Notes under the pieces: generated by a model
What the model was told of the DNA's origin: nothing
What the model saw: the letters and a program-made list of their open reading frames with translations, nothing else
Database searches by the model: none
Shown here: piece after piece, positions 22,704-32,400 of the stretch
Layout: each line of letters starts with the position of its first letter
Position numbering within the stretch: position 1 is the first letter of the stretch
Made by a program: the position numbers and the translations under genes
DNA from: Escherichia coli
GTDB lineage: Bacteria; Pseudomonadota; Gammaproteobacteria; Enterobacterales; Enterobacteriaceae
Assembly (NCBI RefSeq): GCF_017348835.2
Contig: NZ_CP071375.1
Length of the DNA: 64,000 bases
Strand: one strand, 5' to 3'

Positions 22704-22777
22704 CGGACGTCTTGTCGAGTAGCAATCGGCTTTTTATGACGCTGGTTTCAGATTGGTGACAAAGTGCCTGTGTTTAT

Positions 22778-22812
22778 GCCGGATGCGGCGTTAACGCCTT
22801 ATCCGGCCTACA
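22778..22812. repeat. REP (repetitive extragenic palindrome) between barA and gudD
   Basis: GCCGGATGCGGCG...CGCCTTATCCGGCCTAC palindromic unit typical of E. coli REP. Confidence 0.7.
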
Positions 22813-25636: not shown

Positions 25637-26502
25637 CTTATTGCCCCGCGACAGGTTTCAGCTCGATACGCTTGATATCGCCCACCAGCACCAGGTAGCT
25701 CAGTACCGCGATTAAGGCATGAACACCAACATAAATCAGCGCCCCATTAAACGAGCCAGTCGTGCCAACGATATAACCAATTGCGATTGGCGTGACGATG
25801 CCAGAAATGTTACCGAACATGTTGAACAGGCCACCGGAAAGACCGCTGATCTCTTTTGGCGCGGTATCTGCCATTACTGCCCAACCCAGCGCCCCAATGC
25901 CCTTACCGAAGAAGGCCAGCGCCATAAAGCCGATGATCATCCACTCAACGTTGACGTAGTTGCAGAACACCATCACCATCGACAGCAACATGCCCATTAC
26001 GATCGGTGTTTTACGCGCAATGTTCAGCGATCCCGTGCGGCGCATCAGCCAGTCGGAAATAATCCCACCCAGCACACCACCGATAAAACCACAAACCGCC
26101 GGAACGGAAGCCACAAAGCCCGCTTTCAGAATCGACATCCCACGCGCCTGCACCAGATAAACCGGAAACCAGGTAATGAAAAAGTAAGTCAGGGCGTTGA
26201 TACAGTACTGACCGATATAAACGCCGATCATCATCCGTGACCCGAGCAGCTGTTTGATCTGCCCCCACTTCACGCTGAACGGCACTTTAACTTTGGTGTT
26301 TTGCTGATCCATATTGATCAGCGCGCCACCCGCGGCGATGTACTCCAGCTCTTTCTGATTTACCCCCGGATGTTGATTTGGCTCGTGGATGACTTTCAAC
26401 CAGATAAAGCTGATGACAATCCCCAGACCGCCCATAAAGAAGAAGACGTGAACCGCCCCGGAAATCCTGGAGACTAAACTCCCTGAGAAAGAGGTAAACA
26501 GG

Positions 26503-26829
26503 ATGACTAAAAATACTCGTTTTTCCCCCGAAGTCCGTCAGCGGGCGATTCGTATGGTTCTGGAAAGTCAGGATGAATATGACTCACAGTGGGCGGCAAT
26601 TTGTTCCATTGCCCCAAAGATTGGCTGTACGCCGGAGACTCTGCGTGTCTGGGTTCGCCAGCATGAGCGGGATACCGGGAGTGGTGATGGTGGACTCACC
26701 ACCGCTGAACGTCAGCGTCTGAAAGAGCTGGAACGTGAAAATCGTGAACTGCGCCGCAGTAACGATATCCTTCGCCAGGCTTCCGCTTATTTTGCGAAGG
26801 CGGAGTTCGACCGCCTCTGGAAAAAATAA
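26503..26829 (+). CDS. IS3-family transposase OrfA (HTH DNA-binding, leucine-zipper-like C-terminus)
   Basis: 108-aa [29 protein letters not shown]...; ends at an A6 run (26821-26826), the presumed -1 frameshift site. Confidence 0.9.
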
Positions 26830-27716
26830 TGCCACTGCTGGATAAGCTGCGTGAGCAGTACGGGGTCGGACCGGTATGCAGCGAACTGCATATTGCCCCG
26901 TCAACGTATTACCATTGTCAGCAACAGCGACATCATCCGGATAAACGCAGTGCCCGTGCGCAGCACGATGACTGGCTGAAGAAAGAGATACAGCGCGTAT
27001 ACGATGAAAATCACCAGGTATACGGTGTGCGTAAAGTCTGGCGTCAGTTGTTACGGGAAGGTATCAGAGTGGCCAGATGCACTGTGGCACGTCTCATGGC
27101 AGTTATGGGACTTGCCGGTGTTCTCCGGGGTAAAAAGGTCCGCACTACCGTCAGCCGGAAAGCCGTTGCCGCATGCGACCGCGTAAACCGTCAGTTCGTG
27201 GCAGAACGTCCAGACCAGTTGTGGGTGGCTGATTTTACCTGGGTAAGCACATGGCAGGGCTTCGTTTATGTGGCGTTCATCATTGATGTGTTCGCCGGAT
27301 ACATCGTGGGATGGCAGGTCTCATCATCCATGGAAACAACATTCGTGCTGGATGCACTGGAGCAGGCGTTGTGGGCCCGTCGGCCGTCCGGCACAATCCA
27401 TCACAGTGATAAAGGTTCTCAGTATGTATCGCTGGCCTACACGCAGCGGCTTAAGGAAGCCGGATTACTGGCATCAACAGGGAGTACTGGCGACTCGTAT
27501 GACAACGCGATGGCTGAGAGCATCAATGGTCTTTACAAAGCGGAGGTAATACACCGTAAGAGCTGGAAAAACCGTGCAGAAGTGGAACTGGCCACACTCA
27601 CGTGGGTGGACTGGTATAACAATCGACGATTGCTGGAAAGGCTGGGCCATATTCCTCCGGCAGAAGCAGAAAAAGCTTATTATGCTTCCATCGGAAATAA
27701 TGATCTGGCAGCCTGA
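26829..27716 (+). CDS. IS3-family transposase OrfB (DDE integrase-core / rve domain)
   Basis: 295-aa ORF in -1 frame relative to orfA; ...YGVRKVWRQLLREGIRVARCTVARLM...HSDKGSQYVS...YDNAMAESINGLYKAE. Confidence 0.9.
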   Translation: MPLLDKLREQYGVGPVCSELHIAPSTYYHCQQQRHHPDKRSARAQHDDWLKKEIQRVYDENHQVYGVRKVWRQLLREGIRVARCTVARLMAVMGLAGVLRGKKVRTTVSRKAVAACDRVNRQFVAERPDQLWVADFTWVSTWQGFVYVAFIIDVFAGYIVGWQVSSSMETTFVLDALEQALWARRPSGTIHHSDKGSQYVSLAYTQRLKEAGLLASTGSTGDSYDNAMAESINGLYKAEVIHRKSWKNRAEVELATLTWVDWYNNRRLLERLGHIPPAEAEKAYYASIGNNDLAA

Positions 27717-28629
27717 GTTCACAGATAAAACACTCTCCAGGAAACCCGGGGCGGTTCAGACGTGTGACCAGCCCACTTCATGCGTCAGCCAGCCCATAAT
27801 CGGCGCGAAGATCACCGTTGCGAAGTATTGAGCGGAGTTAAAAATCGACACCGCCGTTCCCCTTTCCTGCGCCGGAAACCAGGCCGCAACAATGCGACTG
27901 TTGCCGGGGAAAGATGGCGCTTCAGCAAGCCCGACCAGGAAGCGCAGAGTAAACAGGGCAACGATAATGCCGAATCCACTAAAGATATCGACGAAGCCTT
28001 GCAGCAAGGTAAACATCGACCAGATAAAGATCGACCAGAAGTAGACGCGTTTTGAACCAAAACGATCCAGCAACCAACCACCAGGGATCTGCCCGATAAC
28101 ATAAGCCCATGAGAAGGCAGAGAACACATAGCCCATTCCCACGGGATCAAGGCCGATATCTTTGGCCATTTCCGAACCGGCAATAGAAAGCGTAGCGCGG
28201 TCGCCGTAGTTGAAGGATGTGACGATAAACAACATCACCACTATCCAGTAACGAGCATTCGTGCGTTTTTCCACACTGCTCGCAGCCTGACTTAAAGAAC
28301 TCATTGTTGCACTCCTGAAAATTCGCGTTAGCCACGCTCACTCTGGACTGCGACATCGCCAGGAAATCAGAGGTGACGTAGGGTGTTTTTTGCCGTTTTT
28401 ATAGGTCGTTCGCCGAATACGGCGCGTGTTTATATCTGGCAATAGCAGTATAAAAAGCGCGCCATAGCGGCTCACCGTGCAACAACACAACATTAATGCG
28501 TTCAATGAGGCCCGATTTTGGCATTAGCCCTGGACGGTGGAATCCACTTCACGGAAATGAAAACAAGAACAAGAAAGGAAGGGTTAAAACGAAGAAATAA
28601 AGAAGAGTATGAAATGGATCGCTTGACTC

Positions 28630-28686
28630 CAGGCAAACGCCAGTAAAAATCCGCGCTATGAAGCAGTTTTTACTGGCATTTGCCTG
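28630..28686. other. Long imperfect palindrome (20-nt arms, 17-nt loop) in the yqcA-gudP intergenic region
   Basis: CAGGCAAACGCCAGTAAAAA (28630-28649) pairs with TTTTTACTGGCATTTGCCTG (28667-28686), 19/20 complementary. Confidence 0.6.
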
Positions 28687-28738
28687 AAAAGATTCGATTC
28701 AGCACCGCTAAAACGACATTTACCGCTCGCTGAACATA

Positions 28739-29188
28739 TCAGGACAACAGCGTGCCCCACTGTTCGACCCACGGATTTGATTCCGTTTCCGGTTCCGGGT
28801 TCTCACTGGCGTCAATCAACAGCATTTCGCCAACCCGCTGAGCGCTCTGTTCCTGCAACAAGGCATCGAACTGTTTGCCGCCATTGCAGAAATTTACATA
28901 ACTGCTGTCGCCGAGCGCAATCACGCCATAACGCAGATTCGGCTGGAAGCCCAGACTATCTTTGATTCCCTGAAAGAGCGGCACAATGCTATCAGGAAGG
29001 TCGCCCTGCCCGGTCGTGGACGTAACCACCAGAACATACTTATCCTGATAGGGCAGCCAGTCGCTTAATTCAGGATCTTCAAATACCGTTGCTTTGTGGC
29101 CCTGTGCGGTCAGAATTGCTTCTGCTTCTTCCGCCACTAACAGCGAATTTCCGTACATGGTGCCGACAAAAATACCAATTTCCGCCAT
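28739..29188 (-). CDS. yqcA: Flavodoxin-like protein
   Basis: 149-aa [29 protein letters not shown]...; flavodoxin FMN-binding N-terminus. Confidence 0.9.
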
Positions 29189-29205
29189 ACCGTTTTCTCC
29201 CTGGA

Positions 29206-29988
29206 TTAGGAACTTATCTCTCCATCCTGACCCGATGGCGCACTGAACTCAACCCTTTCATTTTCAGGAAGCAGACCCCGCCAGCCAAATTGTGATAACG
29301 CCTGCATCCAGGTGTCGTCCAGGCCCGCGTGAATAGTCAGCGGCTCGCCAGTAAAAGGATGCGTCAATGACAACTGACTGGCATGCAGCATTAAGCGCTG
29401 AAGGCCAAAATGCTCAGCACCGCTGCGATTCTGGCGTAAATCGCCATGTTTGCTATCGCCAATAATCGGATGACGCAAATGGGCAAGATGGCGACGGAGC
29501 TGGTGCTTGCGTCCGGTTTTCGGCTCCAGTTCCACCAGGCCGTAGCGCGTGGTCGGGTAACGTCCGGTCGCGACCGGCATTTCTACGGTCGCCAGACCGC
29601 GATAATGCGTCACTGCTGGCTGCGGGCCTTTATCTTCGCGGGCAAATTTATCAGCGATTTTGTCCAGTTCTTCCACCAGTGGATAATCCAGCACCGCTTC
29701 TTCCATCAACCAGCCGCGCACAATCGCATGGTAACGTTTCTGGATTTGGTGCTGTTCAAACTGTTGTGCCAGCAGCCGTCCGGCCTCGCTGGATAATCCC
29801 ATCAACAACACACCAGAAGTTGGTCGGTCCAGACGATGAGCAGTAAAAACATGCTGTCCTATCTGGTCACGCACGGTTTGCATGACCACTACTTTCTCGT
29901 CGCGATCCAGCCAGCTGCGGTGAACCAGCCAGCCGGAGGGTTTATTTACCGCAACCAGCCATTCATCCTGATAGAGTATTTCCAGCAT
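29206..29988 (-). CDS. truC: tRNA pseudouridine(65) synthase
   Basis: 260-aa ORF, RluA-family catalytic motif ([13 protein letters not shown]). Confidence 0.93.
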
Positions 29989-30317
29989 TAGCTCGCATCA
30001 TCCGCAAAAAGAGCATCCAGTTTTTCCAACTCAGTCAGAATAAGCGCGCGTTGCGGATGGTCCGTCGCCAGCGCCATTTCATAATAGGGTGCAACGGCAA
30101 AAGCGCCCGGTAACGGCTGGTTGTTATCTAACAAATCGTGCATTCGTGGGATCAGCACCCACTGCAACCACTCCAGTGGTTCCATGGTGTCCATAAAGAA
30201 CGGTTGGGTACTGTTAAATTGATGCGGCTGGGGTTCATCGTTTCGCCAGTGCTGATGTTCACGCAGTAACGCTTCAAGCGCCTGCAACTGGAGACGAACG
30301 CGGTCATGAGTGGTCAT
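29988..30317 (-). CDS. yqcC: DUF446-family protein
   Basis: 109-aa ORF MTTHDRVRLQLQALEALLREHQHWRNDEPQ...; stop overlaps truC start. Confidence 0.85.
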   Translation of the reverse strand: MTTHDRVRLQLQALEALLREHQHWRNDEPQPHQFNSTQPFFMDTMEPLEWLQWVLIPRMHDLLDNNQPLPGAFAVAPYYEMALATDHPQRALILTELEKLDALFADDAS

Positions 30318-30360
30318 AAAGCAACCTCAATAAGAAAAACTGCCGCGAAGGATAGCAGGA

Positions 30361-30719
30361 ATAAAAAAAGGGAGCACTGTATTCACAGTGCTCCCGGTTC
30401 GTTTCGCAGCATTCCAGCTACTTTTGTTGCTCCCTGCTCATCCTTGACAACTTTTCCTCTGGCCTTGCGGCCAATCGTTCATCCTGAACTATTGCTTCCT
30501 GCTCACACCACCCCGATGTGATACTTCATCCTGAAGTGTCCCTGGCCTTCCTGACCCACCGAATCATCCTGACCGGTTCTCATTCTCCATCCTGGAGGTG
30601 TCCTTTAACGCGTCCTGCGTCATCCTCTTCGCTTCATCCAGAAGCCTTTCCCTGAAACACCATCCTGGTGTGTCCTTCAGAAGTGTCATCATCCTGATGT
30701 TCACTTCGTTGTCTGACTC
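30361..30719 (-). ncRNA. csrB: CsrB small regulatory RNA (CsrA-sequestering)
   Basis: Minus-strand transcript with about 18 GGA-containing motifs (CAGGATG/AGGATG family, seen as CATCCTG on the plus strand), ending in hairpin GGGAGCACTG-loop-CAGTGCTCCC plus U-tract (30363-30395); 5' end approximate. Confidence 0.85.
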
Positions 30720-30938
30720 CCTGTCGACGAAGATAGAATCGTCTTTTTCGCGAAGTCTTACAAGGCGCTTACAGACAATGCCTTAAGGAAAATTTCATAT
30801 GAAAGTTAAGAATTAACAAGCAACATATTGATTTTAAATGAAAATAACGATTCTTATCTTTTTAAGTATTCGCTTATTTCCTGGCGATCTCCTACAGAGT
30901 CTGTAAGAGATCTCTCACAACCAGATGGGGTATTTGGA

Positions 30939-31484
30939 TTACAGAAGAGGCTTAAGTTGATTAAGGAATTCCGCAAGATTTGAGGCTAAATGCGTCCGTT
31001 TACGTGTTCCCAGCGTCTCTTTACACACTTCACCGGAGAGATTACACACCGAGATGACCTCTAACTCTTCTTCCAGCGTCGCGATAAATAGCGTGGGCGG
31101 CAGTTTTAGCCTTTTCTGAGTCACCAGATGACCAATCAGATTTTCCTGCACCCGACGGAAGTCGTCTTCACTCCAGGTTTGCAGCAATGTCAGTTTGATA
31201 TCGCCAAACTGCGCGTGCATATCCCCGGCAAACTGAGTCGTATAAAAGGTATGAATTGTGGGTTGTATCACAATATCAAAAGCGCGTTCAACCGCGTTTA
31301 CATTTTGTTCCCCGGTAAACGGCTGGGGTTGCCAGTATACGGCATCTTCAGTAGTTGAAATAATGCACGGTGAAGGAACGCCGTACAGTTCCTCACTTAA
31401 CGGCCAGCTTTTATGCTCTTCCTGCCACGCATCGCAGTAGCGTGCAGTAAAATCTTTCAGGGCTTGTGCGGTCAAATCGTCCAC
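30939..31484 (-). CDS. syd: SecY-interacting protein Syd
   Basis: 181-aa [42 protein letters not shown]... Confidence 0.93.
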
Positions 31485-31551
31485 TAATTTCTCTCTTCAC
31501 TTAAACCAGATACACTTGTCGTTTAGTTTATCTGGTTTATGACGGTGAAAC

Positions 31552-32400
31552 ATGTCTTCTTATGCAAACCATCAGGCACTTGCGGGCCTGACTCTTGGAA
31601 AATCAACCGATTACCGGGATACCTATGACGCCAGCCTACTGCAAGGCGTTCCACGCAGCCTGAATCGCGACCCGCTGGGTCTGAAAGCGGATAACCTGTC
31701 TTTTCACGGTACGGATATCTGGACGCTGTATGAACTTTCCTGGCTGAATGCGAAAGGGTTGCCGCAGGTCGCTGTCGGTCATGTTGAACTTGATTACACC
31801 AGCGTAAATCTGATTGAGTCGAAGAGTTTTAAGCTCTATCTCAACAGTTTTAACCAGACGCGTTTTAATAACTGGGATGAGGTGCGCCAGACGCTGGAGC
31901 GCGACTTAAGCACTTGCGCTCAGGGTGAGGTTAGCGTGGCGTTATATCGTCTTGATGAACTGGAAGGCCAGCCGATAGGTCATTTCAATGGCACTTGCAT
32001 TGATGACCAGGATATCACTATCGATAACTATGAATTCACTACTGACTATCTGGAGAATGCCACCAGTGGTGAAAAAGTAGTGGAAGAGACGCTTGTCAGC
32101 CACCTGCTGAAATCAAACTGCCTGATCACCCATCAACCAGATTGGGGGTCGATCCAAATTCAGTATCGTGGACGCCAAATTGACAGAGAAAAACTGCTGC
32201 GTTACCTGGTCTCTTTCCGCCATCACAACGAGTTCCACGAACAGTGCGTGGAACGCATCTTTAATGACCTGTTACGCTTCTGCCAGCCAGAGAAATTGAG
32301 CGTTTACGCACGTTATACCCGTCGTGGCGGTCTGGACATTAACCCGTGGCGCAGTAATAGCGATTTTGTCCCATCGACCACAAGACTGGTTCGGCAATAA
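31552..32400 (+). CDS. queF: NADPH-dependent 7-cyano-7-deazaguanine reductase
   Basis: 282-aa [34 protein letters not shown]... Confidence 0.95.

Follow-up and report, generated by a model that had tools for sequence, protein, structure and literature searches.

The inverted repeat that lies between yqcA and gudP in the stretch of E. coli DNA analysed here (64,000 nucleotides, hereafter the window) is a real, non-random, single-copy and conserved element, which most likely works as RNA read from the minus strand, and not as DNA. In our view it is probably, with a confidence a little better than even, the stem-loop that protects the transcript end at a terminator depending mainly on Rho. It would insulate the gudPXD operon from read-through of yqcA and might in addition be a substrate of RNase III. 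Most likely, then, this is a conserved and fairly ordinary transcript-end element, so far unannotated, that marks the boundary before the glucarate operon.

On the + strand the palindrome reads CAGGCAAACGCCAGTAAAAA (28630-28649), followed by a loop of 17 nt and by TTTTTACTGGCATTTGCCTG (28667-28686), and inspection of the sequence shows 19 of the 20 arm positions to be complementary. The arms, the match, the loop and the coordinates had all been given correctly in an earlier note on this DNA, and the gene coordinates agree with its placement of the palindrome downstream of yqcA and upstream of gudP. The element begins 53 nt past the stop codon of yqcA (a flavodoxin gene, 28739..29188, minus strand), the upstream gene whose transcript would bear the hairpin, and about 325 nt ahead of the ATG of gudP, the 5' part of which (27756..28304, minus strand, start codon at 28304) comprises the first 182 codons of a gene that is cut by an IS3-family insertion in this strain. 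The gap between the two genes measures 434 bp and is identical in sequence to that of K-12 MG1655, whose annotation has no feature at the hairpin site; window positions are converted to NC_000913.3 positions by adding 2,893,796.

In an inverted-repeat scan, the palindrome was the top-ranked local inverted repeat of the whole 64-kb window. The arm pattern is matched within the window by the two arms only (0.02 matches expected from shuffles), and a back-of-envelope estimate of the chance of finding in 64 kb a 20-nt inverted repeat with at least 19/20 complementary positions and a loop of at most 40 nt gives ~1e-4. A weaker outer inverted repeat, imperfect and with 35-nt arms of 77% complementarity, widens the element to 28615..28701 (minus strand), and in it two of the conserved blocks described below come to face each other, anchor 1 opposing part of anchor 2. 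A U5 run lies within the 3' arm, beside the loop, on both strands, so that the statement of the earlier note that neither strand carries a U-tract holds for the sequence past the full hairpin, but not for the hairpin itself.

The sole mismatch between the arms reads C:A on the + strand. On the minus strand, the sense strand for both yqcA and gudP, it becomes a G:U wobble. In the sense RNA, the 5' arm CAGGCAAAUGCCAGUAAAAA (28667..28686, minus strand) and the 3' arm UUUUUACUGGCGUUUGCCUG (28630..28649, minus strand), which starts with the internal U5 run, enclose an apical part of the form CUGC-UUCAUAGC-GCGG-A (28650..28666, minus strand), with a 4-bp stem, an 8-nt loop and a 1-nt bulge. The helix of the minus-strand RNA is uninterrupted and extends beyond the arms to 28627..28689, giving a stem-loop with 23 contiguous pairs (U:G, U:A and U:G at the base), the bulged A and the four apical pairs. 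The fold of the 63-nt segment has a predicted energy of -40.1 kcal/mol in sense orientation versus -31.7 kcal/mol in antisense, and in a context of 151 nt the values are -57.6 kcal/mol (z -6.8) for the sense strand versus -41.7 kcal/mol for the + strand. In six Escherichia lineages, the sense fold is likewise more stable than the antisense one, by 4-12 kcal/mol.

The substitutions found between sequences point to the same strand. Within Escherichia, 26 alignment cells carry a G:U pair on the sense strand, versus two that do so on the antisense strand only, and over all taxa the numbers are 96 and 44, respectively. Four variant E. coli alleles were examined, and apart from one change, which breaks the terminal pair, their differences are either located in the loop, bulge or flanks or replace a G-C by a sense G:U. 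The apical part is the most variable portion among both the Escherichia species and the other genera. Given the bias towards sense G:U pairs and the more stable sense fold, we read the RNA structure from the minus strand. These results, together with a covarying pair (see below), uphold the structured RNA element that the earlier note had offered as one of its possibilities, although the functional strand had escaped it.

The element is present in 5425 of the 5426 complete E. coli genomes, at one place per genome (E <= 1e-3), and 77 nt of it are 100% identical in ~80% of the complete genomes. One search returned two places per genome, most likely because the palindrome also matches its own opposite strand. 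The generic genome-wide repeat, which the earlier note had named as an outcome that would count against the element, is thus ruled out by the single copy, and the conservation that it had proposed to look for was found both in E. coli and across related genera.

In order to follow the element outside the species, we compared the DNA downstream of yqcA at 80 loci, taking one genome per species. A homologous hairpin is found in every other sampled Escherichia species with the exception of E. albertii, where gudP is not adjacent to yqcA, and also in part of Citrobacter, in Salmonella arizonae/diarizonae, in Superficieibacter, in Raoultella and in some others. No hairpin was found in Enterobacter, Leclercia, Lelliottia and the C. 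freundii group, though gudP stays beside yqcA in these, and among the sampled loci the element was seen only where gudP comes after yqcA. In an alignment of 29 sequences, the E. coli structure leaves 69% of the cells paired, versus 29-45% when the partners are slid, and columns 49/81 form a covarying pair (CG in nine sequences, AU in seven and UA in three). RNAalifold, run on all 29 sequences, predicted no consensus hairpin, probably due to the misaligned apical part and to the loss of the lower stem in some genera, and because of this null result on the same alignment we consider the cross-genus support for the structure moderate. In Kosakonia and Phytobacter the lower stem is gone and the left-arm sequence GGCnnnTGCC is retained, which hints at a constraint acting at the level of the sequence. 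A search of Rfam 15 gave no match with E <= 1 in window positions 26000-32000 or in four loci from other genera, save for CsrB and the pseudoknot of the insertion element.

Small open reading frames running through the hairpin (such as MDRLTPGKRQ and MKQFLLAFA on the + strand, MPVKTAS on the minus strand) were rejected, as their start codons are not conserved, and so was a + strand promoter across the arm (TTGACT-16-AAAAAT), the -10 of which is not conserved in other genera. A 42-codon reading frame with a TTG start (28518-28646, + strand) ends within the palindrome arm, and at least in the RefSeq genome of strain VE-T9 it is annotated as a hypothetical protein (WP_001296328.1). Being antisense to the pyrimidine spacer, the sequence of which is not conserved, it is probably spurious.

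The homologous hairpins of Citrobacter, Raoultella and Superficieibacter have an apical GC stem of 4-7 bp followed by U5-6, and from their sequence look like intrinsic terminators, and in several genera UUUUCA comes directly after the whole hairpin. In E. coli the full stem is followed by GAGUCAAG / GAGUCAAGCG, with no U-tract; its only U5 sits in the 3' arm, where it pairs with A5, and the stem ahead of this U5, CUGC/GCGG, has just 4 bp, one of them G:U, and an 8-nt loop, within a whole helix of 27 bp. In Escherichia the outer U-run has been absorbed into the stem (GUUUGCCUG pairs with CAGGCAAAU) and the apical stem is weak. At -40 kcal/mol, the E. coli stem has ~1.4 to 3 times the stability of the homologues outside Escherichia (-11 to -28 kcal/mol). 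A consensus terminator scan did not call the E. coli hairpin, and a d'Aubenton-type terminator score, which is negative for all taxa and usable as a ranking only, is poor for E. coli and far better for the Citrobacter, Raoultella and Superficieibacter homologues. The earlier note had described the palindrome as not being a typical intrinsic terminator, a view that is supported by the GAGUCAAG after the stem, by the weak CUGC/GCGG inner stem and by the miss in the scan. By comparison with the other genera, the internal U5 is probably the remnant of a terminator U-tract, and the E. coli element as a whole a vestigial terminator turned into a long and very stable stem.

Past the hairpin, the minus strand of E. 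coli continues with a pyrimidine-rich stretch of 62 nt (28557..28618), in which C exceeds G (C 0.26, G 0.05, T 0.58) and which is a candidate Rho loading (rut) region. Its length is 62-63 nt in 28 of 31 loci, and the mean composition over the 31 loci is C 0.32 and G 0.13; the C>G bias and the length are conserved across these loci, and the sequence is not. According to Dar and Sorek (2018), Rho-dependent E. coli transcripts end just past stable stem-loops that have no U-run, these stem-loops protect against PNPase and RNase II, and rut sites are found directly downstream of them. The yqcA-gudP gap presents a stable stem-loop (-40 kcal/mol for 63 nt) with no U-run after it, a C-rich and G-poor stretch directly downstream, and Rho-sensitive termination further downstream on the same strand, the latter seen at low resolution. 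The anatomy thus agrees in every point with the class delineated by Dar and Sorek (2018), and the likeness covers the position after a gene, the stem-loop, the composition of the stretch and the sensitivity to bicyclomycin. The present stem, at 27 bp, is of unusual length, and the A5/U5 tract within it seems to be the vestige of an intrinsic terminator; it is by this anatomy that yqcA is likened to the class.

The termination signal is a minus-strand Rho termination region with its peak at position 2922118, a Rho score of 3.98 and p 9e-8 (Adams et al. 2021, Supplementary file 2). The downstream/upstream reads amount to 23/114 in untreated cells and 90/112 with bicyclomycin, i.e. the ratio rises from 0.20 to 0.80 (Adams et al. 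2021), as measured in 800-nt windows, which are of low resolution, and with a peak that lies ~300 nt downstream of the hairpin. Since bicyclomycin raises the read ratio, the hairpin alone does not stop most transcription, and at the scale of the 800-nt windows minus-strand transcription crosses the gap and is mostly stopped by Rho rather than by the hairpin. No RNA 3' end is listed at the hairpin in the curated Term-seq tables (Adams et al. 2021), nor in the SMRT-Cappable-seq supplements (Yan), which amounts to absence of evidence only, because yqcA is weakly expressed. The Rho signal could also correspond to attenuation of transcripts begun at the gudP promoter.

From these observations we propose that yqcA transcripts (probably yqcC-truC-yqcA) would fold the stem-loop of 23+4 bp at 53 nt past the stop codon. 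This hairpin would derive from an intrinsic-terminator-like hairpin, of the kind seen at the same position in other Enterobacteriaceae, and in Escherichia the base of the stem would have been extended, both U-runs would have been swallowed by the helix and the apical stem would have been weakened, with the consequence that the hairpin alone would terminate poorly. The polymerase would then enter the C-rich, G-poor 62-nt stretch, where Rho would load and halt transcription before or around the start of gudP, and 3'-exonucleases would trim the RNA back to the hairpin, which would both set and protect the 3' end of the yqcA mRNA. The net effect would be that the inducible gudPXD operon is insulated from upstream read-through. 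If correct, this makes the element a clear example, and one of unusual length, of how a weakly expressed E. coli operon is ended in the absence of a canonical terminator, by a vestigial intrinsic terminator serving as protective hairpin, a rut-like stretch and Rho, and of how an inducible sugar-acid operon is kept from being driven by a constitutive neighbour. No new principle would be involved.

A related design is the lambda sib/tI retroregulator, in which a terminator is reportedly embedded in a longer RNase III hairpin. The two share a U-run terminator placed inside a longer dyad, a full duplex that arises only in read-through RNA, and a length sufficient for RNase III; in the present case, a coverage difference dependent on rnc is reported 1 nt from the stem. 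The present case differs in that its inner terminator is weak and its cleavage putative, in that it is not known to have an antitermination system, and in that the published signal consists of 48 reads in a non-validated list. RNase III accommodates a duplex of ~22 bp (Altuvia et al. 2018), a size that is reached by the helix with its 23 contiguous pairs plus 4, and given this near-perfect duplex of more than 22 bp, RNase III may also cut the read-through RNA, in a manner similar to sib/tI. Position 2922422, listed as 'gudP-yqcA', has 48 reads in the rnc deletion versus 0 and 1 in the wild type (Gordon et al. 2017, Table S1), a low count at a site that was not validated in vitro; it corresponds to window position 28626, 1 nt 3' of the extended stem. 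The same table lists gudP (2921482), garP (3274632) and cdaR (182886) as well, with higher read numbers in the rnc deletion than in the wild type, which suggests that the glucarate/galactarate regulon is up in this mutant. As the three genes appear in the same list, the 2922422 entry may only reflect the higher gud/gar expression.

The hairpin is flanked by conserved blocks, which we call anchor 1 (CUGAAUCG, 28695-28702), anchor 2 (GTCAAGCGATCCATTTCATACTC, 28605..28627, directly 3' of the stem) and anchor 3 (TTTTCATTTCCGTGAAGTGGATTCCAC, 28537..28563, the start of the gudP regulatory region), all on the minus strand. From anchor 1 (CTGAATCG) to anchor 3 (TTTTCATTTCCGTGAAG), the genera align nearly without gaps, with indels found only in the apical loop, and the spacings are fixed, with 75 nt between anchors 1 and 2 and 74 nt between anchors 2 and 3. 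Across genera, no block varies less than anchor 2 (TCAAGnGA-N5-TTCAnAnT), and anchor 3 opens a gudP regulatory region that is common to most genera having gudP beside yqcA. On the opposite strand, anchor 2 has the CRP-like sequence TGTGA-N6-TCnCT-TGAC. The region upstream of gudP (28537-28702) is in this way a mosaic of invariant blocks at fixed spacing, which is shared by many genera of enterobacteria and seemingly unannotated, and as such relevant where the gudP promoter and CdaR serve as a glucarate biosensor. Because the element occurs only beside gudP, and within a module of fixed geometry, it may serve the control of gudP and not the formation of the yqcA 3' end.

In Salmonella arizonae/diarizonae and three Citrobacter (loci L008, L019, L022, L023 and L024), anchor 1 (ACUGAAUCGUGUUAGCU), situated ~80-100 nt past the yqcA stop codon, is complementary over at least 16 nt to the gudP 5' UTR by the Shine-Dalgarno sequence (-40 to -15 of gudP). 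The duplex has an energy of -20 to -25 kcal/mol (z -2.9 to -5.1) and ranks 2-6 of ~400 windows. No complementarity between anchor 1 and the gudP UTR was found in Escherichia, where the duplex has ~-8 kcal/mol and a positive z. The match could represent an sRNA-target pair, a long-range pairing or a coincidence.

These observations bear on the possibility that anchor 1, the hairpin and anchor 2 together make up a larger conserved cis-regulatory or small RNA, with the hairpin as its core, that would control gudP post-transcriptionally. It would be either a long leader of gudP or an sRNA that derives from the yqcA 3' UTR and has its end at the internal U-run, with anchor 1 and/or anchor 2 pairing with the gudP ribosome-binding region. 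We find this unlikely, though it has several points in its favour: the near gap-free alignment from anchor 1 to anchor 3 with its spacings of 75 and 74 nt, the strong anchor 1:gudP 5' UTR duplex in the Salmonella and Citrobacter loci just mentioned, the occurrence of the module only beside gudP, and the presence in anchor 2 of many genera of CACUCCUG, the exact complement of the gudP Shine-Dalgarno sequence CAGGAGUG. In the RNAalifold prediction, moreover, the two anchors are paired around the hairpin, but these pairs never vary and are therefore uninformative either way. Against it, the complementarity is missing in Escherichia, and the UTR motif GCUAAC is kept in Raoultella, which has no anchor 1, and lost in Citrobacter L007, which has it, so that the two occur independently and no co-variation exists between them. 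Likewise, no conserved promoter was seen upstream of anchor 1 on reading the sequence, the region has no Rfam family, and we found no paper naming an RNA here, nor any that names both yqcA and gudP, the papers on yqcA being concerned with the protein or unrelated. A more elaborate version, which we hold to be quite improbable, sees the hairpin as the centre of an undescribed non-coding module of ~250 nt upstream of gudPXD (anchor 1, hairpin, anchor 2, a spacer of 62/63 nt and anchor 3) that would silence leader or read-through RNA in two ways, by a sib-like switch in which RNase III would cut the long stem formed only past the embedded terminator, and by the pairing of anchors 1 and 2 with the gudP ribosome-binding region; if true, only transcripts begun at the CdaR-dependent promoter would be translated. 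Doubtful to a similar degree is that the element still works as an intrinsic, possibly bidirectional, terminator at the internal U5, with an incidental complementarity of the lower stem. The A5 - short GC stem - U5 layout is that of such a terminator, Phytobacter has a T-run on the opposite strand, and the likeness to intrinsic terminators extends to the gene-end position and to the A-tract, GC stem and U-tract of the homologues in other genera, where stems of 4-7 bp with U5-6 in Citrobacter, Raoultella and Superficieibacter rank far better as terminators. The E. coli element differs in having merely CUGC/GCGG with an 8-nt loop before its U5, which the consensus scan missed, and GAGUCAAG after the full stem. 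Its read-through, moreover, is largely limited by Rho, with a downstream/upstream read ratio of 0.80 across the yqcA-gudP boundary once Rho is inhibited, and the tables of Adams et al. list no Term-seq 3' end at the internal U5. Finally, the lower stem is under selection in Escherichia and is therefore not incidental.

Two further explanations place the function of the palindrome in the DNA. The arms (GGCAAATGCC / GGCGTTTGCC), which are 43 bp apart, could serve as operator-like boxes at which CdaR or some other regulator acts, far upstream of the gudP promoter, an idea close to the protein-binding site that the earlier note had put forward and one that we consider very unlikely. It would account for the retention of the left-arm sequence even where the pairing is lost and for the resemblance of this arm to the promoter-proximal GGGCTWATGCC box of most genera examined, and the fixed spacings also suggest a DNA architecture. 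The arm core GCAAATGC resembles words in other CdaR-linked regions, and the core GCWWWTGC has three occurrences in the gud gap (434 bp), two between garP and garD and one upstream of cdaR, compared with 0.34 per kb in the window; the words common to the gud and gar gaps are at chance level for 8-mers. A matrix that we constructed from the boxes conserved in the garP-garD gaps of seven genera, for which CdaR binding is putative, gives only 3.1 bits at the arm and 7 bits at the promoter-proximal gud box. The training sites themselves reach 11.5-21.8 bits and an independent match upstream of cdaR 13.2 bits, and from 6 bits upwards the window background amounts to ~2 matches per kb. The substitutions are in addition strand-asymmetric, favouring sense G:U, and one position covaries, neither of which is expected for a protein site, and the CdaR operator is undefined in the papers found. 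From the matrix score, the strand-asymmetric substitutions and the genera that have gudP beside yqcA and no hairpin (Enterobacter, Leclercia, Lelliottia and the C. freundii group), we conclude that the arms are not supported as CdaR sites; this test covers one motif, the putative CdaR box, and another protein stays a possible candidate. The palindrome could also descend from a dispersed repeat or a small mobile element (REP/BIME, ERIC or MITE), as a copy or a remnant. The length of the inverted repeat, the conservation of its outer arms and the variability of its centre would fit such an origin, and REP-like sequences occur at the same spot in other genera. However, each of the 5425 E. coli genomes has the element at a single place, the window has no further copy, and the element is syntenic across genera and bears no likeness to REP, which does occur elsewhere in the window (e.g. 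22775-22810), making this origin extremely improbable. The reading that we retain as the most likely is that of a stem-loop protecting the transcript end at a terminator that depends mainly on Rho.

The comparison with the galactarate genes gave observations of separate interest. The garP-garD gaps of seven genera (MG1655, L083:6909-7282; the others, L090-L095) contain two to three conserved boxes, TTGnGCATATGCAC and GGGCGCTAATGCAC, which are ~22 bp apart, and ATTGTGCAAATGC, 42 bp upstream. The match of the derived matrix near cdaR, TTGTGCAAATGCCTAA (13.2 bits), lies 67 nt upstream of this gene, within the upstream region taken from L089:1810-1963. Judged by sequence, the gar and cdaR boxes are a candidate CdaR operator, which is not described in the biosensor papers found.

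In the strain analysed here, gudP is split into two pieces (25638-26435 and 27756-28304) by the IS3-family element at window positions 26440-27755, and for this reason the operon downstream of the hairpin is probably non-functional. The insertion carries orfA (26503-26829), orfB (26829-27716) and an ALIL frameshift pseudoknot (26784-26900), and among 5426 complete E. coli genomes no more than 3, the pig strains F2_81 and PE164 being examples, cover at least 80% of the 2-kb stretch formed by the element and its gudP flanks. Two more strong inverted repeats of the hairpin type are found ~200 nt apart at 5334-5373 and 5548-5587, one of them with 16-nt arms that match at 100% and an 8-nt loop, and the other with 17-nt arms that match at 88% and a 6-nt loop. 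The small RNA CsrB is present as a full-length Rfam match of 383 bits (30360-30719, minus strand), in its expected place between yqcC and syd.
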